DNA of 7,919 nucleotides from a virus (lineage: Duplodnaviria > Heunggongvirae > Uroviricota > Caudoviricetes): IMG/VR virus record IMGVR_UViG_3300029095_000201, positions 1-7,919 of that record. The stretch is one strand, 5' to 3'. The position numbers were made by a program, and so were the translations under genes. Each line of letters begins with the position of its first letter. Position 1 is the first letter of the stretch. Of this stretch, positions 1-7,919 are shown in pieces. The notes beneath the pieces were generated by a model, which was given only the letters and a program-made list of their open reading frames with translations, did no database searches and was not told the DNA's origin.

Positions 1-377
1 CGAAAACAGCCATCAATGAAGCCCTGCGCAGAATGAAAAAAGCGGGAATAGAGAAAGCTGAGCTGGAAGCGTTTTTGCGAGAGATGATCAACGGCAAGCA
101 AAAGAGCTGGCTGGCGCATTGTACTGATGCAGAGGCGTTATGTATTGATCGAGTCATAAGTGAGGTGCTGGCAGAGCATCCTGGATTGATTAGTGTCCTC
201 CGGCAACGGTATGAAGGACGGGGGATGACTAAGCGCAAAATGGCTGAATTGCTAAATGATGCACATCCTGAGTGGTGTTTTAGCACATGCGAAAAGCGAA
301 TTGCTAATTGGTTGGCTGTTGCTGAGTATGCCCTATATATTCCCATGCGAGAATCATTTGCTCAAAAAATAGCTTGA
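1..377 (+). CDS. Putative late-gene antiterminator (Q-like), C-terminal portion; 5' end truncated by the window edge
   Basis: The frame of the listed ORF 33-377 stays open back to base 3, so the gene begins upstream of the window. The call rests on position (immediately upstream of a terminator-containing leader and the lysis cassette), not on recognised sequence; I do not recognise the Q family from this C-terminus. Confidence 0.45.
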   Translation, partial: KTAINEALRRMKKAGIEKAELEAFLREMINGKQKSWLAHCTDAEALCIDRVISEVLAEHPGLISVLRQRYEGRGMTKRKMAELLNDAHPEWCFSTCEKRIANWLAVAEYALYIPMRESFAQKIA

Positions 378-402
378 TTTTTTACGCATAAACTGCTTCA
401 AT
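374..402 (+). promoter_or_regulatory. Candidate late promoter (PR-prime-like): -35 TTGATT (374-379), 17-bp spacer, -10 TTCAAT (397-402)
   Basis: Hexamers read directly from the sequence, overlapping the stop codon of the upstream ORF. The -10 is a weak match (4/6). Placement fits the lambdoid arrangement where the late promoter lies just after Q and before a terminator. Confidence 0.2.
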
Positions 403-460
403 TCCGGTATGCTTCGCAAAGCTGTATCGCGAGGCGAACCAAGCGCATGAACTTTACCAG

Positions 461-490
461 AACCCGCCATTGAGCGGGTTTTGTTGTTTC
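461..490 (+). terminator. Rho-independent terminator (tR-prime-like) downstream of the Q-like gene
   Basis: 7-bp stem AACCCGC (461-467) / GCGGGTT (474-480), 6-nt loop CATTGA, followed by the T-rich tract TTGTTGTTTC (481-490). The reverse strand lacks a U-tract, so it is + strand only. Confidence 0.6.
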
Positions 491-561
491 TGGTACTGGT
501 GAACCTGATGTTTCATTTCTGGAGCGCGATTCCTGGCGGAATACCTAGAATCGAGACATTC

Positions 562-570
562 TGGTAAAAT
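562..570 (+). promoter_or_regulatory. Candidate extended -10 promoter element (TGgTAAAAT) for the downstream cargo gene
   Basis: TG at 562-563 and TAAAAT at 565-570, about 30 nt upstream of the start at 599, downstream of the 461-490 terminator. No good -35, which is tolerated with extended -10 elements. Sequence-only prediction. Confidence 0.3.
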
Positions 571-598
571 TGTTTTCAGTACAGGATGTGGAGGTGAG

Positions 599-1168
599 AT
601 GAGAGAACTACCTAAAGATTATTTTTTAGGAGTAGATGATGAGCTCGTCGATTATCTTGAAAAACAAGGGGAAGAGACGATACGAGAGATTCATCTTTCT
701 AACAAAACCAATGTTGAGAATGGATACAAACTTCTGAACATTCAGATTGTTGGAATTGGTTCATCTTTTTTATTGCTGACACAGAAAACTAATTTCGATT
801 TTCTCACCGCCGGAATTACCACATTTACATTACTATGGACATGGTGCGCCATTTACTTGGTATGTACTGGTTTATCTGTGAAGGTTAGGGGCCTGATCAA
901 TGCCCCTCCTGATCATATATATCATGAAAAATATAAGGATATGGAGCCCTCGAGCTTTAAAATATTCGCTGATGCAGGATATTTAGGACCTGATAAGTTA
1001 TTGCCGCTTATACGAAGGTATCGCCTTGTTGACTTGAGTGATACAGCAAGAGAGTTACTGTTGGAAAATGAGAAAATCCGCACGAGTCTCGATAAAGCAA
1101 GGATGTATACCATCCTTGCTCCGGTAGCGGCGATGTTTATCTCGGCTGTTTTTTTATATGTTCAATGA
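599..1168 (+). CDS. Hypothetical integral membrane protein, 189 aa, cargo (moron) gene between Q and the holin
   Basis: ATG at 599 preceded by a strong SD GGAGG (590-594, 4-nt spacer). The translation has three hydrophobic helix-length segments (IQIVGIGSSFLLL; FLTAGITTFTLLWTWCAIYLVCTGL; C-terminal MYTILAPVAAMFISAVFLYV) with a charged N-terminus and a roughly 80-aa charged segment between helices 2 and 3. Visibly AT-rich relative to the flanking lysis genes. No family recognised. Confidence 0.6.
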   Translation: MRELPKDYFLGVDDELVDYLEKQGEETIREIHLSNKTNVENGYKLLNIQIVGIGSSFLLLTQKTNFDFLTAGITTFTLLWTWCAIYLVCTGLSVKVRGLINAPPDHIYHEKYKDMEPSSFKIFADAGYLGPDKLLPLIRRYRLVDLSDTARELLLENEKIRTSLDKARMYTILAPVAAMFISAVFLYVQ

Positions 1169-1298
1169 CTGAGTCGGCAGAATCTCCAACAAAAACACGA
1201 CGTGTAGCAAAGTCTGTAGTACTTTGTGTTGGAGTTGGTTTTGGTGCCACGGGTTGCTGAGGTTTATTTTCACCTTGTGGTTTGTTTTTTTCAGACAT
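1137..1298 (-). CDS. Small hypothetical protein, 53 aa (MSEKNKPQGENKPQQPVAPKPTPTQSTTDFATRRVFVGDSADSVIEHIKKQPR), convergent with and overlapping the 3' end of the 599-1168 gene
   Basis: Internal ATG (complement of 1296-1298) within the listed 130-aa minus ORF, preceded by a strong SD AAGAGGA (complement of 1303-1309, about 4-nt spacer). Pro/Gln-rich hydrophilic N-terminus, no hydrophobic segment. Overlaps the + strand gene by 32 bp (1137-1168). No family recognised; could be a chance ORF in a 3' UTR. Confidence 0.4.
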   Translation of the reverse strand: MSEKNKPQGENKPQQPVAPKPTPTQSTTDFATRRVFVGDSADSVIEHIKKQPR

Positions 1299-1392
1299 AA
1301 AAATCCTCTTTGTTTGAATTGTTACTTTTGGCGATTTAACGATATCAAACACGAGTATATACCGCCAGAAGCTTAATCTGGCACTCCATCTG

Positions 1393-1420
1393 GCCCCGGC
1401 ATGTCCCGGGGCTTTTTCGT
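1393..1420 (+). terminator. Rho-independent terminator between the cargo locus and the holin gene
   Basis: GC-rich 7-bp stem GCCCCGG (1393-1399) / CCGGGGC (1406-1412), 6-nt loop CATGTC, followed by TTTTT (1413-1417). The reverse strand has no U-tract after the stem. Confidence 0.55.
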
Positions 1421-1515
1421 TGTTAGGCTCTGGAAACATCCTCGACTTCTTGTTAGCAAGCCTGAGAGCCTGAATCTTACACTTAGCACCATCCGAACTC
1501 TCGGAGGTGAGGCTT

Positions 1516-1857
1516 ATGAAAATGCACAATGCCCCTCATTCCTGGCCTGACTTACTGGAACTCTTACAAAGTTGGTGGCGTGGAGATACGCCGCTGGGTG
1601 CAGTGGTTATGTCAATTATTATGGCTGGTTTGCGCATTGCCTATTTTGGCGGTGGCGGCGGCTGGAAACGAAAAACGCTTGAGATTCTGCTTTGTGGTGC
1701 TCTGACGCTGACCTTTGCATCCGCGCTTGAGTATGTCGGATGGCCTAAATCACTTTCTGTTGCCATTGGTGGTGGGGTGGGGCTGATTGGTGTTGATGCT
1801 ATTCGTGGTGCGGCAATGAGGGTCATCGGTAACAAGTTCGGTGCCCATAAGGAGTAA
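1516..1857 (+). CDS. S: Holin, class I (three predicted TM segments), lambda S-like with a Met-Lys-Met dual-start motif
   Basis: Sits immediately upstream of the endolysin gene. SD GGAGG at 1503-1507. Begins MKMHN..., i.e. two in-frame Met codons separated by Lys as in the lambda S107/S105 holin/antiholin pair (from memory). Three hydrophobic segments and a charged C-terminal tail. I prefer ATG 1516 over the GTG 1507 of the ORF track because GTG 1507 overlaps the SD. Confidence 0.8.
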   Translation: MKMHNAPHSWPDLLELLQSWWRGDTPLGAVVMSIIMAGLRIAYFGGGGGWKRKTLEILLCGALTLTFASALEYVGWPKSLSVAIGGGVGLIGVDAIRGAAMRVIGNKFGAHKE

Positions 1858-1860
1858 TTA

Positions 1861-2337
1861 ATGCAGACACTTAATTCCCAGCGTAAAGCTTTCCTTGATA
1901 TGGTGGCATGGTCAGAAGGAACAGATAACGGACGGCAGAAAACCAGAAATCACGGTTATGATGTTATTGTCGGTGGCGAACTGTTCACTGATTACTCCGA
2001 TCACCCCCGCAAACTTGTCACGCTAAATCCGAAACTCAAATCAACAGCCGCTGGACGTTACCAGCTTCTTTCACGCTGGTGGGATGCCTACCGCAAGCAA
2101 CTTGGCCTGAAAGATTTTTCTCCAGAAAGTCAGGATGCTGTAGCGCTGCAGCAGATTAAAGAGCGTGGCGCTTTGCCGATGATTGATCGCGGTGATATCC
2201 GTCAGGCTATCGACCGTTGCAGCAATATATGGGCTTCACTGCCGGGCGCTGGTTATGGTCAGTTCGAGCATAAGGCTGACAGTCTGATTGCAAAATTCAA
2301 AGAAGCTGGCGGAACGGTCAGAGAGATTGAGGTATGA
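1861..2337 (+). CDS. R: Endolysin R (lambda-type lytic transglycosylase), 158 aa
   Basis: The translation matches lambda R as I recall it almost residue for residue ([48 protein letters not shown]...). SD AAGGAG at 1848-1853. Stop overlaps the Rz start in an ATGA junction (2334-2337), as in lambda. Confidence 0.9.
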
Positions 2338-2793
2338 GCAGAGTAACCGCGATTATCTCCGCTCTGGTTATCTGCATCGTCGTCTGCCTGTCATGGGGTG
2401 TTAATCATTACCGTGATAACGCCATCGCCTACAAAGAACAGCGCGACAAAAATGCCAGAGAACTGAAGCTGGCGAACGCGGCAATTACTGACATGCAGAT
2501 GCGTCAGCGTGATGTTGCTGCGCTCGATGCAAAATACACGAAGGAGTTAGCTGATGCGAAAGCTGAAAATGATGCTCTGCGTGATGATGTTGCCGCTGGT
2601 CGTCGTCGGTTGCACATCAAAGCAGTCTGTNNNNNNNNNNNCCACCACCGCCTCCGGCGTGGATAATGCAGCCTCCCCCCGACTGGCAGACACCGCTGAA
2701 CGGGATTATTTCACCCTCCGGGAACGACTGGTAATGATGCAGGCCCAACTTGAAGGTGCTCAGCAATACATAACCGAGCAGTGTTTAAAGTAA
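2334..2793 (+). CDS. Rz: Spanin Rz (inner-membrane i-spanin); reading frame broken only by the N-run at 2631-2641
   Basis: N-terminal 99 aa ([21 protein letters not shown]...[10 protein letters not shown]) match lambda Rz as recalled. After the N-run the Rz C-terminus ([29 protein letters not shown]...EQCLK) continues in a frame shifted by +1, ending at TAA 2791-2793. The shift is explained if the N-run stands for a different number of bases, not by a real frameshift. Confidence 0.85.
2554..2734 (+). CDS. Rz1: Spanin Rz1 (outer-membrane lipoprotein o-spanin), embedded in the +1 frame of Rz
   Basis: Starts [20 protein letters not shown] with a lipobox (VVGC) and signal peptide. After the N-run the proline-rich C-terminus [29 protein letters not shown] reads in the matching shifted frame, ending at TAA 2732-2734. 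The embedded arrangement is the established lambda Rz/Rz1 architecture. Confidence 0.8.
2631..2641. other. Run of 11 ambiguous bases (N) inside the Rz/Rz1 overlap, i.e. a masked or unresolved stretch
   Basis: Directly visible. Both Rz and Rz1 shift by the same +1 across it, so the true length is congruent to 1 modulo 3 (10, 13, 16...). Comparison with lambda Rz as recalled (AVC-QSVREA-TTASG) suggests 16 nt. Confidence 0.95.
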
Positions 2794-2930
2794 AATCTTA
2801 ACTACAATATGATTCATTTTGATGATTGTTTCATAAGGAACAGTGAAGTAAGATCTAAGAGGAGTTAAATTTTATACAGTATAATCATAATATTGCAGCA
2901 AGGTGGTTATAATTGAAAGAATATTTAGAT

Positions 2931-4388
2931 ATGAATACATCTCATGTAAGAGTTGTTACTCATATGTGTGGGTTCCTGGTTTGGCTCTATAGTCTTTCAA
3001 TGTTGCCACCAATGGTTGTAGCATTGTTTTATAAAGAAAAAAGCCTGTTCGTTTTCTTTATAACTTTCGTTATATTTTTTTGCATTGGTGGCGGAGCGTG
3101 GTATACAACTAAGAAATCTGGCATTCAATTACGTACCCGTGATGGGTTTATTATAATTGTAATGTTTTGGATTTTGTTTTCTGTTATTAGTGCATTCCCT
3201 TTATGGATTGACTCAGAACTTAATTTAACGTTCATTGATGCTCTGTTTGAAGGGGTTTCTGGAATAACAACAACAGGAGCAACTGTAATTGATGATGTTA
3301 GTTCATTACCTCGGGCATATTTGTACTATCGGTCACAGTTAAATTTTATAGGTGGTTTAGGAGTTATTGTTCTGGCGGTTGCTGTATTGCCATTATTGGG
3401 TATTGGTGGTGCAAAGCTTTATCAGTCAGAAATGCCGGGGCCATTTAAGGATGACAAACTCACTCCCCGCCTGGCCGATACGTCACGGACACTGTGGATA
3501 ACTTATTCTTTATTAGGTATTGCTTGTATTGTCTGTTATAGACTTGCAGGAATGCCTTTGTTTGATGCTATTTGTCACGGGATTTCCACAGTTTCGCTTG
3601 GTGGTTTCTCAACTCATAGCGAGAGTATCGGATATTTTAATAACTATTTGGTTGAGCTGGTGGCTGGTTCTTTTTCCCTGCTATCGGCTTTCAACTTCAC
3701 TCTTTGGTATATTGTTATTAGCAGGAAAACGATAAAACCTTTAATCAGAGATATTGAACTTCGTTTCTTTCTGTTAATAGCCTTAGGGGTGATCATTGTT
3801 ACCTCTTTCCAGGTCTGGCATATAGGTATGTATGACTTGCATGGAAGTTTTATTCATTCGTTTTTTCTTGCCAGCTCCATGCTCACTGATAATGGTTTAG
3901 CTACGCAGGATTATGCAAGTTGGCCCACGCACACGATAGTGTTTTTGCTGTTGTCAAGTTTCTTTGGGGGATGTATAGGTTCAACTTGTGGTGGAATTAA
4001 GTCACTTCGATTTCTTATACTTTTCAAACAAAGCAAACACGAGATAAATCAGCTTTCTCATCCCAGAGCGTTGTTGAGTGTAAATGTAGGAGGGAAGATA
4101 GTTACAGATCGTGTAATGAGGTCTGTATGGAGTTTCTTTTTTCTTTATACTCTCTTCACGGTGTTTTTTATACTGGTGTTAAATGGTATGGGATATGATT
4201 TTCTTACATCATTTGCAACAGTGGCTGCATGTATTAATAATATGGGATTAGGTTTTGGGGCTACTGCATCGTCATTCGGAGTGCTTAATGACATTGCAAA
4301 ATGTTTAATGTGCATAGCTATGATTCTTGGTCGCCTTGAAATTTATCCTGTTATTATATTGTTTTCAGGTTTTTTTTGGCGCTCCTAA
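2931..4388 (+). CDS. trkG: Trk-system potassium uptake protein TrkG (TrkH/KtrB family membrane subunit), 485 aa from ATG 2931
   Basis: Multi-pass membrane protein with TrkH-type motifs recognisable against E. coli TrkH as recalled (GITTTGATV, EMPGPFKDDKLTPRLADTSRTLW, GGCIGSTCGGIK, MILGRLEIYPVIILFSGFFWRS). Strongly AT-rich, as described for trkG of the Rac prophage. An alternative TTG start at 2913 has the better SD (AAGGTGG at 2900-2906); ATG 2931 gives the 485-aa length I recall for K-12 TrkG. Confidence 0.9.
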   Translation: MNTSHVRVVTHMCGFLVWLYSLSMLPPMVVALFYKEKSLFVFFITFVIFFCIGGGAWYTTKKSGIQLRTRDGFIIIVMFWILFSVISAFPLWIDSELNLTFIDALFEGVSGITTTGATVIDDVSSLPRAYLYYRSQLNFIGGLGVIVLAVAVLPLLGIGGAKLYQSEMPGPFKDDKLTPRLADTSRTLWITYSLLGIACIVCYRLAGMPLFDAICHGISTVSLGGFSTHSESIGYFNNYLVELVAGSFSLLSAFNFTLWYIVISRKTIKPLIRDIELRFFLLIALGVIIVTSFQVWHIGMYDLHGSFIHSFFLASSMLTDNGLATQDYASWPTHTIVFLLLSSFFGGCIGSTCGGIKSLRFLILFKQSKHEINQLSHPRALLSVNVGGKIVTDRVMRSVWSFFFLYTLFTVFFILVLNGMGYDFLTSFATVAACINNMGLGFGATASSFGVLNDIAKCLMCIAMILGRLEIYPVIILFSGFFWRS

Positions 4389-4474
4389 TATATGGCTGAT
4401 TTATAATTGTGAGTTTAATATTATGTTGACTCACTCATTGATCCAATACCTAACTTTACCAGCAACACCTCCGT

Positions 4475-4510
4475 CCCCAGTAGCACTGGCTGCTGGGGTG
4501 CGTTTTATTC
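4475..4510 (+). terminator. Rho-independent terminator downstream of trkG
   Basis: 10-bp stem CCCCAGTAGC (4475-4484) / GCTGCTGGGG (4489-4498) with one G-U pair, 4-nt loop ACTG, followed by TGCGTTTTATTC. Confidence 0.5.
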
Positions 4511-4525
4511 ATAAAGCAAGGCTGT

Positions 4526-5317
4526 ATGAGCGAGAAATTAAAGATAGTCTATCGCCCATTACAAGAATTGTCACCGTATGCGCACAACGCCAGGACGCAC
4601 AGTACTGAGCAGGTGGCACAACTGGTAGAAAGTATTAAGCAATTCGGCTGGACTAATCCGGTGCTGATTGACGAAAAGGGCGAAATTATTGCGGGTCACG
4701 GTCGTGTTATGGCGGCTGAAATGCTCAAAATGGATTCTGTTCCGGTCATTGTTCTGTCTGGCCTGACGGATGAGCAGAAAAAGGCGTACCGCCTGGCAGA
4801 TAATCGCCTGCCGATGAATGCTGGCTGGGATGAAGATCTGTTGCGGATGGAGCTGTCGGACCTAATCAATGCTGATTTTGATGTCTCCCTGACAGGCTTC
4901 ATCCCGACAGAAATTGATGAACTGTTGACGGATGTTTTGCCCGGTACAGGAAATGAGGAGGAGCCGTATACGACGAAAATTGATACGCCTGTTTATGAGC
5001 CGTCGGGCGGTAAACCGGATATCAGTGAACTGTACGACGATACGAAAACTCAGGAGCTGATCAGCCGGATACGTTCGGCGTCCCTTGAGCCTGATATTGA
5101 GAAATTCCTCCTGTGTGCGGCAGAACGTCACACGGTGTTTAATTTCAGCAGAATTGCGGACTATTACGCTCACGCCCCCTCTGAAATTCAGTGTTTTTTC
5201 GAGGAGTCGGCGCTGGTGATCATTGATTATCAGCAGGCTATTGAAAATGGATTTGTCCGGATGACGCAGCGCATGGTGGAGATCATGCATGGTGGTGAGG
5301 AGGAGGAATATGCGTGA
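4526..5317 (+). CDS. ParB-like nuclease-domain (ParB/sulfiredoxin superfamily) protein, 263 aa, with an uncharacterised acidic C-terminal half
   Basis: N-terminal 100 aa carry the ParB N-domain signature (IVYRPLQELSPYAHNARTHS...; LIDEKGEIIAGHGRVMAA with the GxGR box). Likely the intact counterpart of the short Rac ynaK gene, but I cannot verify identity. The C-terminal 140 aa end in EEEEYA with no recognised domain. Stop overlaps the next gene start by 8 nt. Confidence 0.7.
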   Translation: MSEKLKIVYRPLQELSPYAHNARTHSTEQVAQLVESIKQFGWTNPVLIDEKGEIIAGHGRVMAAEMLKMDSVPVIVLSGLTDEQKKAYRLADNRLPMNAGWDEDLLRMELSDLINADFDVSLTGFIPTEIDELLTDVLPGTGNEEEPYTTKIDTPVYEPSGGKPDISELYDDTKTQELISRIRSASLEPDIEKFLLCAAERHTVFNFSRIADYYAHAPSEIQCFFEESALVIIDYQQAIENGFVRMTQRMVEIMHGGEEEEYA

Positions 5318-6242
5318 TGATTTTTGCGCCTTTATTCTGACTCACGGGCGACCGGACAAAGTTCTGACTTACCGGACGTTGCGTCGTGCTGGCTATACCG
5401 GGAAAATTTTTATCGTTGTTGATGATGAAGATAAGACACGGCATCAGTACATGGCTGAATTTGGTGAACAGGTGCTGGTGTTTTCCAAAGCCGATATCGC
5501 CAGTCGTTTTGACGAAGCCGATAATTTCTGTGACCGCCGCTCAATTTTTTACGCCCGTAATGCCTGTTTCGACCTGGCAAAACTGGTCGGGTGTAAATAC
5601 TTCATTCAGCTCGATGATGATTATCACGAGTTCCAGTTTCGGGTGGATCGCAACTATGACCAGGCCTATTTTCCGATAAGGAAACTGGATGCGATCCTTT
5701 CTGAAATGCTGGCGTACTACGAATCAATACCTGCTCTTTCCATCGCTATGTCGCAGGGCGGGGATTTTCTTGGTGACAATGGCGGCCATGCTTCGTGGGT
5801 GAAACGCAAGGCAATGAACAGCTTTATCTGTTCGGTTGATCGACCGTTCTCATTCATGGGGCGCATTAACGAGGATGTGAATACGTACACGAATCTCGGT
5901 CGCTGTGGTGAATTGTTTATGACGATCGGTGCTGTCCAGTTAGGGCAGAAACAGACGCAGAAAAACAGCGGCGGAATGACCGAGCTGTATCTGGATTCCG
6001 GAACCTACGTTAAAAGTTTTTACTCCGTCATGTATGCGCCGTCGTGCGTAAAAATCTCACTGATGGGTGCCAGCCATAAACGCATTCACCATCAGGTCAC
6101 CTGGAACAACGCTGCAGTAAAAATCCTTCACGAAAAATACAGGAAGAAGACACCCTGCATATCAATGGGGGTGACAAATGATTCCGTATTCGAAAGTCGA
6201 GTCTCTGGCAGCGTGCCGGATGACTGCACAACAAATCGCTGA
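5310..6242 (+). CDS. Hypothetical protein with GT-A-like features (putative nucleotide-sugar-dependent glycosyltransferase), 310 aa from ATG 5310
   Basis: Start ATG 5310 chosen over the track's 5289 because of the SD run GAGGAGGAGG (5297-5306). The N-terminus has a strand-loop-helix-strand pattern (CAFILTHGRPD ... KIFIVVDDEDKT) and a later acidic triplet (YFIQLDDDY) resembling the GT-A DxD metal/sugar-nucleotide site. No hydrophobic membrane segments. Fold assignment is inference from motifs only. Confidence 0.5.
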   Translation: MRDDFCAFILTHGRPDKVLTYRTLRRAGYTGKIFIVVDDEDKTRHQYMAEFGEQVLVFSKADIASRFDEADNFCDRRSIFYARNACFDLAKLVGCKYFIQLDDDYHEFQFRVDRNYDQAYFPIRKLDAILSEMLAYYESIPALSIAMSQGGDFLGDNGGHASWVKRKAMNSFICSVDRPFSFMGRINEDVNTYTNLGRCGELFMTIGAVQLGQKQTQKNSGGMTELYLDSGTYVKSFYSVMYAPSCVKISLMGASHKRIHHQVTWNNAAVKILHEKYRKKTPCISMGVTNDSVFESRVSGSVPDDCTTNR

Positions 6243-7113
6243 CGTTCTGGATGTTGATCTGAACCGACTGAAAGAAAATCGGGAAGCAATGACAGATTTT
6301 TATGCGGCTATCCGGTTTGATAAATATGACGGTAGCGCAACAACTTTTCTTGGTGATGCGTATATTGATACACAAACGCTTGAAATTAATATGACAGGCG
6401 GTGCTGCCTCAAGGATTACAGCGAGAGTCAGAAAGGACGAAGCTACCGGATGGATTTTTGCAGAGGCAACAATTCAGGCAATTGATGGGGAGTTAAAAAT
6501 AGGCTCTCAGATACAGTATTCTCCTAAGCAGAGCGGGGCAACCGTATCTGGTGACTATATTTATCTGGCCACCCCACAAGTAGAAGATGGGCCTTGTGTA
6601 TCATCTTTTATTATATCAGGAGCGACGGCGGCGACCCGCGCAAGCGATATAGTTACAGTTCCAATTAAGAATAATCTTTATAATCTTCCTTTTACGGTTC
6701 TTTGTGAGGTACATAAGAACTGGTATAAAACGCCAAATGCAGCGCCACGTGTTTTTGATACCGGCGGTCATCAAACCGGAGCGGCTATTATTCTTGGCTT
6801 CGGTCGTTCAACAGATTACGACGGATTTCCTTATTGCGATATTGGAGGAGCTAACAGACGGGTAAACGAAAACGCATCGCTTGAAAAAATGGTTATGGGG
6901 ATGCGTGTAAAGTCAGATCAGTCTACGTGCTCAGTAAGTAACGGGCGTATATCCAGCGAAACAAAAACCACATGGTCCTGTATTCAGAACACCGCAATTA
7001 TCCGTATTGGAGGCCAGACTACAGCCGGGTTACGTCATTTATTTGGTCATGTCAGGAATTTCAGAATATGGCACAAGGCATTGACTGATGCTCAGGTGGG
7101 GGAGTCAATCTAA
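6178..7113 (+). CDS. Hypothetical protein, 311 aa; C-terminal region resembles a concanavalin-A/LamG-like jelly-roll (lectin-like) domain
   Basis: ATG 6178 preceded by G-rich SD GGGGGTGA (6167-6174). The C-terminal motif IRIGGQTTAGLRHLFGHVRNFRIWHKALTDAQV resembles the terminal strands of LamG/ConA-like domains. The start overlaps the upstream gene by 65 nt; alternative in-frame ATGs at 6220 and 6289 lack good SDs. Domain call is weak inference. Confidence 0.45.
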   Translation: MIPYSKVESLAACRMTAQQIADVLDVDLNRLKENREAMTDFYAAIRFDKYDGSATTFLGDAYIDTQTLEINMTGGAASRITARVRKDEATGWIFAEATIQAIDGELKIGSQIQYSPKQSGATVSGDYIYLATPQVEDGPCVSSFIISGATAATRASDIVTVPIKNNLYNLPFTVLCEVHKNWYKTPNAAPRVFDTGGHQTGAAIILGFGRSTDYDGFPYCDIGGANRRVNENASLEKMVMGMRVKSDQSTCSVSNGRISSETKTTWSCIQNTAIIRIGGQTTAGLRHLFGHVRNFRIWHKALTDAQVGESI

Positions 7114-7394
7114 TGAAAGATTTAACACTCAAATTTGCCGACAGGGCCGACTTTTCGGCCTTTATGGAGAGTATTGGCTATTATGATGACGAGTCGATGC
7201 AGGATGATATTCTTATTGACGTGATAGGTAACGTGTACAAAGAAACCGGAGAACTGACTGAAGATGGCGAACCGGTATGTGTTAAGGAAGACGGATATTT
7301 TGTAAACGTGCGCATCATTAATGATGCAAAAAAATCGTCAATATTCGATAAATACGCGGTTGTTGTTGAGCATCAACTTCGTGGCTGGATGTGA
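7113..7394 (+). CDS. Small acidic hypothetical protein, 93 aa
   Basis: ATG overlaps the upstream stop (TAATG at 7111-7115). SD GGGGGAG at 7098-7104. No recognised family. Confidence 0.45.
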   Translation: MKDLTLKFADRADFSAFMESIGYYDDESMQDDILIDVIGNVYKETGELTEDGEPVCVKEDGYFVNVRIINDAKKSSIFDKYAVVVEHQLRGWM

Positions 7395-7403
7395 GGGAGA
7401 CAA

Positions 7404-7919
7404 ATGGCTACATCGACAGTAATTCCAGGAGATATCACCACGCTAAAGGGAGATGTCAGTAAAACTAAGGAAGATATTTCCTCAATTAACGGAAAAGTAT
7501 CAACGCTTCAGACTGATATGACCAGTGCAAAGCAGGATATCAGCACCAGATACACAAAAACTGAAGTTGATAATAAGCTGAAAAACAAAGTGGAAGTGAA
7601 CGATCTGGAAAGTGGTCGTTATGGCGGAGATTTTTATCCACTGACAGGTCGTGAAGCGTTTTATTTATGGAATTTGGCCACGACTACAGCGGCGGCAAAC
7701 CTTTATCTTAATCCTGACCCCGCAATTTCGTCTGTGCTGCGGTCAACATCGTCTATCCGCTATAAACATTCAGTAGAGACAATAGATTCAAAGCACGCTG
7801 ATCTCATTTTCAGGATGCGCCCTGTGTGGTACAGGTCACAATGCGAAAATGACAGGCGTGACTGGGGATTCTACGGATTGATTGCCGAGGAAGTAGGAGA
7901 AATTGCCCCTCAGTTTGTA
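7404..7919 (+). CDS. Coiled-coil fibre-like protein with a C-terminal intramolecular chaperone (peptidase S74-like) domain; 3' end truncated by the window edge
   Basis: ATG 7404 with SD GGGAGA (7395-7400). I translated the frame by hand to base 7919 with no stop. The N-terminal 60 aa have a heptad-like pattern (DITTLKGDVSKTKEDISSINGKVSTLQTDMTSAKQDIS). From about 7750 the sequence (SSIRYKHSVETIDSKHADLIFRMRPVWY...DWGFYGLIAEEVGEIAPQFV) resembles the S-x-R-x-K autocleavage site and start of the chaperone domain of phage tail fibres and tailspikes, as recalled. Confidence 0.6.
   Translation, partial: MATSTVIPGDITTLKGDVSKTKEDISSINGKVSTLQTDMTSAKQDISTRYTKTEVDNKLKNKVEVNDLESGRYGGDFYPLTGREAFYLWNLATTTAAANLYLNPDPAISSVLRSTSSIRYKHSVETIDSKHADLIFRMRPVWYRSQCENDRRDWGFYGLIAEEVGEIAPQFV

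Follow-up and report, generated by a model that had tools for sequence, protein, structure and literature searches.

A Mobile Cassette of Two Convergent, Overlapping Genes in the Late Region of a Rac-Type Prophage: A Candidate Toxin or Defence Module with a PycTM/SLATT-Like Membrane Protein

The Cassette and Its Features

We analyzed a stretch of 7,919 nucleotides (nt) from a tailed-phage record (IMG/VR record IMGVR_UViG_3300029095_000201, positions 1 to 7,919; "the window" below means this whole stretch), which covers the late region of a lambdoid prophage of the Rac type, integrated at ttcA. Between the gene of a Q-type antiterminator and the holin gene lies a cassette of two genes (494-1420), which face each other and overlap at their 3' ends. 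A preliminary description of this DNA, made from the letters, had seen a single gene with its own promoter and terminator, that is, the layout of a moron. This was right in so far as the segment is mobile cargo with a promoter box and a terminator of its own; however, the unit consists of two transcription units that converge and overlap. The 225 nt from the stop codon of the big open reading frame (ORF) to the right terminator are occupied by a convergent gene, which runs from 1298 to 1137 and has its own promoter box. The features of the cassette are listed below with their strand and the basis of each assignment.

562..570, plus strand: extended -10 box TGGTAAAAT of the candidate big-gene promoter (P_big); read from the sequence and conserved in homologous loci
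590..594, plus strand: Shine-Dalgarno (SD) sequence of the big gene, GGAGG; read from the sequence
599..1168, plus strand: big gene, predicted inner-membrane protein of 189 amino acids (aa), WP_001208721.1, phrog_11870; ORF, PHROG, RefSeq, AlphaFold2 (AF2) model and alignments
1094..1122, minus strand: hairpin of 12 bp, GGAGCAAGGATG-GTATA-CATCCTTGCTTT, made of big-gene codons K166-P175; covariation
1298->1137, minus strand: small gene, 53-aa protein rich in Pro, Lys and Gln, MSEKNKPQGENKPQQPVAPKPTPTQSTTDFATRRVFVGDSADSVIEHIKKQPR, phrog_14506; conservation, ratio of nonsynonymous to synonymous substitution rates (dN/dS) and RefSeq
1304..1308, minus strand: SD sequence of the small gene, GAGGA; read from the sequence, with GGAG-type SD sequences conserved in other loci
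1339..1347, minus strand: extended -10 box TGATATCGT of the candidate small-gene promoter (P_small); conserved TGnTAnnnT
1364..1382, no strand assigned: inverted repeat GCCAGA-N7-TCTGGC over the -35 position of P_small; fixed position among loci
1392..1418, plus strand: right-end intrinsic terminator GGCCCCGG-CATGTC-CCGGGGCT with a T-run; terminator scan, conserved in loci

The Big Gene

All of the parts that had been named for the big gene were recovered. The 189-aa ORF is present, its strong SD sequence stands 4 nt ahead of the ATG, and the candidate promoter is a full TGn extended -10 box. We found that this box is kept above chance: of 53 non-redundant homologous loci, 46 have a TAAAAT-type -10, in the context CATTCAGGTAAAAT, at -41..-33 of the start codon. 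It is absent from the output of a simple promoter scan because the scan demands a -35 match. Judged from the position of the box, transcription of the big gene would start at about 577. The downstream terminator was found by the terminator scan (1392-1413 plus T-tail), and a plus-strand terminator stands at the equivalent right-end place in 32 of the 53 loci, including loci with other holin families. It would stop transcripts from P_big and shield the holin gene. Thus, at the level of sequence signals, the cassette has its own promoter and terminator equipment, with -10 boxes for both genes and plus-strand terminators on both sides.

The three transmembrane (TM) helices that had been predicted for the big protein agree with our results. 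Hydropathy analysis gave three hydrophobic segments (residues ~44-62, 68-92, and 169-189), which lie inside the long helices of a confident AF2 model (14-62, 68-92, and 134-188; pLDDT 84); the first segment is only moderately hydrophobic. The protein consists of an acidic N-terminal helix, a TM hairpin (~44-62, 68-92), a basic helical domain (93-168), and a C-terminal TM helix (169-188). Because of its charge distribution, the protein is suggested to lie with its N-terminus inside, so that both soluble parts would be cytoplasmic with almost no periplasmic exposure. The median dN/dS of the big gene is 0.10, which indicates purifying selection.

The Small Convergent Gene

The small gene converges on the big gene and shares 32 nt with its 3' end. 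In RefSeq it is annotated in a longer form, with 71 aa and running to 1352 (WP_152948782.1). The encoded protein has no Cys and no signal peptide, and it is mostly coil; residues 1-40 are coil in the single-sequence AF2 model. Pfam, NCBIfam and PADLOC gave no match for either protein of the window, and the PHROG families in which they fall are of unknown function.

The small gene accompanies the big gene in all 92 full-length loci, among which one small ORF contains an N base and another a 1-nt slip within a T-run. The 37 distinct sequences of the small protein all share the pattern M-S-x-x-N-K-P...KPQQP...KPTP...R-V-F-V-G-D-S-A-D followed by a basic tail. Pairwise dN/dS ranges from 0.08 to 0.5, with a median of 0.33 (0.10 in the big gene). 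The two proteins co-diverge (ρ = 0.64), and no discordant pair was found among 51 combinations. A chance ORF on the minus strand was considered and rejected on the basis of this conservation (92/92 loci) and of dN/dS.

The motif TGnTAnnnT was found at -50..-46 of the small-gene ATG in 41 of the 53 non-redundant loci, compared with 1.7 expected by shuffling, and transcription from it would start at about 1332. The inverted repeat over the -35 position of P_small has the same position in 16 of 33 distinct loci (4.9 ± 2.1 in shuffles); its alternative form is TGCCGC...GCGGCA. It may serve as an operator or form a hairpin in the 3' untranslated region (3'-UTR) of the big mRNA. Because Rfam gave no match in window positions 1-3000 (E ≤ 1), the antisense unit is not a known small RNA.

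Two variations touch this gene. A homopolymer of seven A lies close to its start (minus strand, 1285-1291, codons 3-5), and in one IMG/VR copy (L032) a 1-nt deletion in the A7 run frameshifts the small gene and leaves the big gene intact, which may be a sequencing error or slippage. In a Klebsiella/Citrobacter-type clade of 72-75% identity (L045-L050), a tRNA gene stands directly after P_small, ~100 nt to the right of the small-gene start, and replaces the inverted repeat and the terminator.

A Conserved Hairpin within the Codons of the Big Gene

The hairpin listed above lies 15-40 nt past the stop codon of the small ORF on the minus strand. Across 40 distinct sequences, 94.4% of the cells of the hairpin are paired, against about 50% when the partner is slid. 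Compensatory double changes were found in 5 of the 12 pairs; at pair 16-40, for instance, 19 sequences have A-U and 19 have G-C. The observed covariation score was reached by none of 500 shuffles. The pairing is also specific to one strand. On the plus strand it is 76.2%, compared with 94.4% on the minus strand, and the minus strand is better in 40 of 40 sequences. The mean minimum free energy is -19.0 kcal/mol on the minus strand and -13.3 kcal/mol on the plus strand, and the fold has a z-score of -2.9. The pairing is weaker on the plus strand because about one fifth of the hairpin pairs are G.U on the minus strand.

We considered whether the hairpin is a by-product of conserved amino acids in the big protein. 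This explanation was rejected, since the double changes alter residues on both arms; it is also contradicted by the G.U pairs that exist only on the minus strand. We therefore read the hairpin as a putative 3' stem-loop or terminator of the small-gene transcript.

Distribution and Mobility of the Cassette

Among 5,426 complete E. coli genomes, the whole locus was found in 223 and the flank in 1,445. About 1,200 further E. coli genomes match just positions 380-493 of the window, that is, the pR'-like region and the left terminator, and have different cargo after it. This bears on the left boundary of the cassette, which had been set at an upstream terminator. Such a terminator was indeed found by the scan (stem 458-483, T-tail to ~490); however, it belongs to the Q/pR' module and not to the cargo. 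Because it is shared with other cargo, 458-490 is the tR' of the late switch and the cargo starts at about 494.

The slot had been likened to the one in which Shiga-toxin phages carry stx, and it is indeed variable: sibling prophages with the same Q module carry other cargo there. In a sibling trkG-bearing Rac-type prophage, the same Q gene is followed by tRNA-Thr, tRNA-Gly, a small ORF, and then the EssD lysis cassette. In a sibling prophage of enterohaemorrhagic E. coli (EHEC), it is followed by tRNAs, TerB, DUF3927, DUF6645, and then a class II holin. The cassette also has the lower GC content that had been noticed (0.388 in the big ORF and 0.408 in 494-1420, against 0.506 in the lysis genes), and its GC content is below that of the surroundings in three different hosts. 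Hence it shows the marks expected of a moron, namely presence in some genomes and absence from others (223 vs. 1,445), mosaic contexts, and deviant composition (0.39-0.41 vs. 0.51).

The cassette was found in Enterobacterales, Pasteurellaceae, Gilliamella, and high-GC metagenome contigs. The scan of genome contigs contributed 8 loci, and the comparative power comes mostly from IMG/VR. In Enterobacterales, the copies follow at least three antiterminator families (PF06530/DUF1133, PF03589, and one unnamed) as well as Rha/KilA-N/ORF6N genes and the tail chaperone T, and they precede at least three holin families (lambda S, P21, and holin_8). Distant relatives with 20-35% identity adjoin the CI repressor gene, in a position like that of rexAB. 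Another distant copy lies between tail protein T and the tape measure gene, beside a PemK toxin gene; others lie in the early region of Pasteurellaceae prophages, and a copy on a high-GC contig stands directly after a zinc-finger Q gene. Most of the relatives with 20-35% identity (Pasteurellaceae and metagenome contigs) also have a small Pro-rich ORF that converges on the big gene. Truncated big genes with an intact small gene were also found, for example in Leclercia (L011) and in clusters P0033, P0083, and P0097. The cassette is not specific to the slot between Q and holin; it is an autonomous, horizontally mobile unit and not part of the lysis machinery.

Some copies carry additional elements. 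In the Pasteurellaceae locus L096 (3320-3520 and 4270-4360; the same in L097), a promoter-terminator unit, TTGACA-17-TAAGAT ... AAGCCGTA..TACGGCTTTTTTT, flanks the module on both sides, and it looks as if the module had been inserted into, or moves with, a repeated leader element. In the copies adjacent to cI, the big gene is immediately preceded by an additional ORF of ~53 aa (L105 5756-5917; L099 1200-1364), which in L105 is extremely acidic (MNDWKYDSDEDLALNHDDQEYDGDDDDFDP...) and may be a third component in these lineages. The record PP818812.1 ("Actinobacillus phage vB_Apl-pPE4") combines an E. coli-like pR'-tR' segment (94.9% identity) with a homologue 52% identical to the big protein, which is an odd content given its stated host, Actinobacillus.

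Family Relationships of the Big Protein

The preliminary description could assign the big protein to no family. We found that it falls in phrog_11870 and in a wide family whose divergent members are labelled PycTM or SLATT. The family has ~100 clusters in Enterobacterales, and an exhaustive profile search gave ~97 representatives overall at 50% clustering; the members have 160-200 aa and all share one architecture.

Three kinds of label connect this family with membrane effectors. For the member P0130, a precomputed record lists Pfam PF18967 (PycTM) at E ≤ 1e-5, and the alignment of the window clade (A1) matches the full length of P0130 with an hhalign probability of 99.4% (E = 3.6e-21, 179 columns); the big protein is thus homologous to a protein recorded as matching PF18967. 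Two Pasteurellaceae members, P0216 and P0225, are named SLATT-domain proteins in UniRef, and P0216 is related to the window clade with an hhalign probability of 99.8%. Among the relatives, the PADLOC model of PycTM gave one match (E = 1.5e-8) and the "2TM effector" models of the cyclic oligonucleotide-based antiphage signalling system (CBASS) matched two; when 30 members were scanned singly with PADLOC, only P0198 matched (2TM effector model, E = 0.0022). The relative behind the PycTM match is likely to be P0130.

PycTM and SLATT proteins belong to the membrane effectors by which the cell is killed or arrested in abortive infection of the kind mediated by the antiphage resistance system based on a pyrimidine cyclase (Pycsar) and by CBASS. 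The big protein also has the build of SLATT proteins, being a small helical protein with two to three TM helices (three hydropathy segments and the AF2 helices). SLATT proteins, which have 2-3 TM helices, are predicted in the literature to be effectors that form pores, and they are said to move very readily from one system to another (PMC9226505). The three independent labels on divergent members agree, and the big protein is probably a distant, cyclase-less relative of PycTM/SLATT-type membrane effectors.

Setting in the Window and the Prophage

Two features of the context adjoin the cassette.

375..493, plus strand: pR'-like promoter region and tR'-like terminator, the late-gene switch of Q (DUF1133); context and left boundary, outside the cassette
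1516..1857, plus strand: holin gene, context; Pfam Phage_holin_3_1 and RefSeq annotation, with lysozyme and Rz genes downstream

The gene order in the window is the 3' part of a DUF1133/Q-type antiterminator gene (to 377), the cassette, a lambda-type holin gene, lysozyme, and Rz, then trkG and ynaK, and then a deletion junction at ~6314 joined to tail-fibre genes. Collinearity with the intact Rac-type prophage L001 stops at 6314, with tail-fibre genes matched by 6309-7919. The deletion has removed the head and tail genes, and the ORF at 6178-7113 is probably a fusion that spans the junction. Because the Rac-type order breaks off at ~6314, the window copy is a defective prophage, in which the cassette is still retained. 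Rac of K-12 is likewise defective; unlike K-12, the window copy still has the Q-lysis segment.

Read from the sequence, the candidate pR'-like promoter has the hexamers TTGATT-16-TTCAAT at 375-402. It is immediately followed by a -10-like TATGCT (408-413), which could be a sigma70-dependent pause site for Q loading, and by a leader of ~80 nt that ends at the 458-490 terminator. The holin gene begins with a lambda-type Met-Lys-Met dual start (1516-1524), that is, a holin/antiholin pair; therefore the phage already owns a lysis-timing device. Eleven masked bases (N) at 2631-2641 lie within the overlapping Rz/Rz1 genes, and the ORFs there look artificially interrupted. The potassium transporter gene trkG (2913-4388), a classic Rac cargo gene, comes directly after the lysis cassette and is a second low-GC moron in the window (GC 0.388 in the big ORF, 0.378 in trkG). 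The L001 prophage also holds the type I toxin RalR and SieB (3841-4035 and 8779-9267), so the cassette coexists with other exclusion or toxin cargo.

Interpretation and Alternatives

We tentatively interpret 494-1420 as an autonomous, mobile two-gene module of toxin or defence type, with a PycTM/SLATT-like effector and antisense-coupled expression; we consider this nearly as likely to be right as wrong. In a lysogen, both promoters would fire convergently. The small transcript (~1332->1090) would end in the hairpin within the big-gene codons and would be fully complementary to the 3' third of the big transcript (~577->1418). Convergent transcription and formation of an RNA duplex would couple the two genes antagonistically, and the small gene could restrain the membrane effector through its basic, largely disordered and probably cytoplasmic protein, its antisense RNA, or both. 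If this balance were upset, the effector would be freed and the membrane damaged or depolarized. A possible trigger is infection by a phage that stops host transcription or exhausts a labile partner; for copies in late operons, strong Q-dependent read-through might swamp the antisense unit. The outcome could be exclusion or protection of abortive-infection type, or behaviour like that of a toxin-antitoxin (TA) pair. The flanking plus-strand terminators would insulate the cassette from pR' and keep P_big from firing the holin gene. An exclusion- or defence-type role, which the preliminary description had raised, is plausible.

Several results weigh against this interpretation. The window protein itself has no match in Pfam (no family at E ≤ 1), NCBIfam, or PADLOC, and matches neither PF18967 nor the PycTM model of PADLOC. 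When the 59 relatives (A2, including P0130) were scanned with hmmscan at E ≤ 0.01, neither PF18967 nor a SLATT model was listed. Because of this, the PycTM/SLATT link comes from the precomputed record, the UniRef name, and sporadic PADLOC matches; for SLATT, Pfam and NCBIfam models matched neither the window protein nor the 59 relatives, and the UniRef name is the support. Composition bias of TM segments could also inflate such matches. Searches with the model in PDB and BFVD found only generic long helical bundles as similar folds, the sequence-profile search of PDB found nothing below E = 0.3, and a literature search by accession or PHROG id found nothing on the cassette. Among annotated or Pfam-labelled neighbours, no PycC or other cyclase was found in L001-L005, L096-L109, or the whole Rac-type prophage; in the loci examined, the surrounding genes serve phage regulation, lysis, or tail functions, and no nucleotide-signal generator or sensor (SMODS, SLOG, or reverse transcriptase) adjoins, the small ORF being the constant partner. 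The small partner is not evident in L099 and L100 and is doubtful in L098. The U-tract behind the hairpin is weak (mean of 3.4 T in 8 nt), and therefore the hairpin may be a stabilizer and not an efficient terminator. Finally, most Enterobacterales copies lie in the late operon just ahead of the holin gene, which is compatible with a role in lysis, and a constitutively toxic effector in a late operon should harm the phage.

A stronger version of the toxin/defence interpretation is that the effector is governed by a convergent antisense mRNA with a dual function and not by a nucleotide signal. The antisense mRNA would encode a disordered Pro/Lys-rich partner, its 3' stem-loop would be written into the codons of the effector, and Q-dependent late transcription would flip the balance. 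This would make the cassette a new class of module, a possibility that we regard as rather doubtful.

The antagonism of the two genes might serve only the maintenance of the element. In a selfish addiction module, a membrane toxin and an antitoxin, either the antisense RNA or the small protein, would act by post-segregational killing and have no role in defence. The convergent overlapping transcripts resemble the logic of type I TA systems, one of which, RalR/RalA, is carried by Rac; the strict linkage of the two genes, the truncated big genes beside intact small genes, and the retention of the cassette in a defective prophage would all fit. We nevertheless consider it unlikely, because a "toxin" of 189 aa is far above the size of type I toxins, purifying selection acts on the protein encoded by the antisense transcript, the cassette occupies classic defence or conversion slots (including that beside cI), and the relatives of the big protein act as effectors in defence systems. 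A TA role and a defence role do not exclude each other, however. A more improbable explanation is an accessory of lysis timing, in which a late membrane protein modulates holin triggering in the manner of an antiholin or by depolarization and is silenced in the lysogen by the small antisense gene. It is suggested by the position of most Enterobacterales copies, immediately upstream of the holin gene and in the direction of the Q-dependent late operon, by the high-GC relative directly after a Q gene, and by a weak holin PHROG match in 1 of 59 relatives (phrog_689, E = 0.0028). However, this match is at noise level, and the window protein itself has no holin Pfam or PHROG match. Moreover, the holins next to the cassette belong to at least three unrelated families, and sibling prophages that share the same Q lack the cassette; copies beside cI, in tail slots, and in early regions are far from lysis genes; the cassette has its own promoter box and terminators on both sides; and the holin of the window is already provided with a dual start.

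In phage phi80, a gene antisense to the Q-driven late operon is expressed in the lysogen and reduced when Q is made, and its antidote lies in the late operon (Tai/Ati; PMC11364771). By analogy, the small protein could be a lysogen-expressed defence or host-modulating factor and the big protein a counter-measure that protects the phage's own lytic cycle; the small gene is indeed antisense to the late operon and has a conserved promoter box. However, sizes and orientation are reversed relative to Tai/Ati, the big gene also has a conserved promoter box of its own, the copies adjacent to cI are oriented with cI, a disordered soluble peptide of 50 aa is unlikely as a stand-alone effector, and the relatives of the big protein are effectors and not antidotes. 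In addition, a tblastn search of 50,697 phage records with the big protein as query (the small protein was not searched) gave no phi80 match; it found only four Rac-like E. coli phage records and one "Actinobacillus" phage record. We regard such a split of roles as very unlikely. The lowest probability of all is given to the single-gene moron of the preliminary description, with a membrane protein for lysogenic conversion and an incidental ORF on the minus strand. The promoter-like box, SD sequence, ORF, and downstream terminator are all there, and one phage record annotates the big gene alone at this locus. However, the minus-strand ORF is conserved in 92 of 92 loci with dN/dS well below 1, has its own SD sequence, promoter box, and 3' hairpin, and persists in relatives with 20-35% identity; in addition, the predicted lack of periplasmic exposure would be unusual for a surface-conversion factor. 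This explanation is largely refuted by the conservation data.

Implications

If the toxin/defence interpretation holds, a two-gene module of ~0.9 kb escapes the current detectors (PADLOC, Pfam, and NCBIfam), although the window allele is found in ~4% of complete E. coli genomes and diverged alleles occur in Enterobacterales, Pasteurellaceae, and other Proteobacteria. A PycTM/SLATT-type effector would work without a cyclase or reverse-transcriptase sensor, and in the stronger version of the interpretation such a module would connect the antitermination of phage late genes with antisense control and an abortive-infection effector. Control by a tiny disordered protein together with antisense transcription would then be a new control logic among the few known. 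The hairpin would be a clear case of a selected RNA structure inside a coding region of the opposite strand, and the module would help to explain why many temperate phages retain this cassette in classic moron slots. The locus also illustrates that a lone "hypothetical protein" gene can be half of a functional pair that is overlooked when only one strand is read.

Comparison with Known Systems

Like PycTM (PF18967) of Pycsar, the big protein is a small helical membrane protein with a TM hairpin. It differs in its extra C-terminal TM helix, in its carriage as a phage moron, and in having no adjacent PycC; the conserved partner is instead a convergent gene for a disordered protein of ~50 aa. Compared with SLATT systems, the cassette is without a nucleotide-synthesizing or reverse-transcriptase partner, and both its partner and its convergent layout are unlike those described.

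Type I TA systems such as hok/sok and RalR/RalA of Rac are also small and prophage-borne and have an antisense transcript opposite a membrane-protein gene. In the cassette, however, the overlap is at the 3' end and not at the translation start, and the antisense RNA encodes a conserved protein. A hydrophobic toxin of less than 60 aa was not found, the big protein having 189 aa (160-200 aa in the family), nor is the antisense RNA non-coding, since its product is under purifying selection.

Lambda RexAB, SieB, HK97 gp15, and P22 SieA are, like the cassette, accessory cargo that brings its own signals and sits in temperate-phage hot spots. Some copies of the cassette take the rexAB-like position beside cI, and the window copy lies in the stx-type (stx/nanS-p) slot between Q and S. 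In contrast to these morons, the cassette is without similarity to any PHROG of known function and is known here from its sequence.

The closest architectural precedent is the "noncontiguous operon" of phi80 Tai/Ati. Homology was rejected on the tblastn result for the big protein, and the proteins are unrelated. In the cassette, it is the small gene that runs antisense and the large one that runs sense; the two overlap at their 3' ends, and a hairpin lies in the codons of the partner. Nevertheless, both are pairs in a Q-dependent late operon with one member antisense, and they share with excludon-type pairs the logic that late transcription can flip the balance of the two genes.

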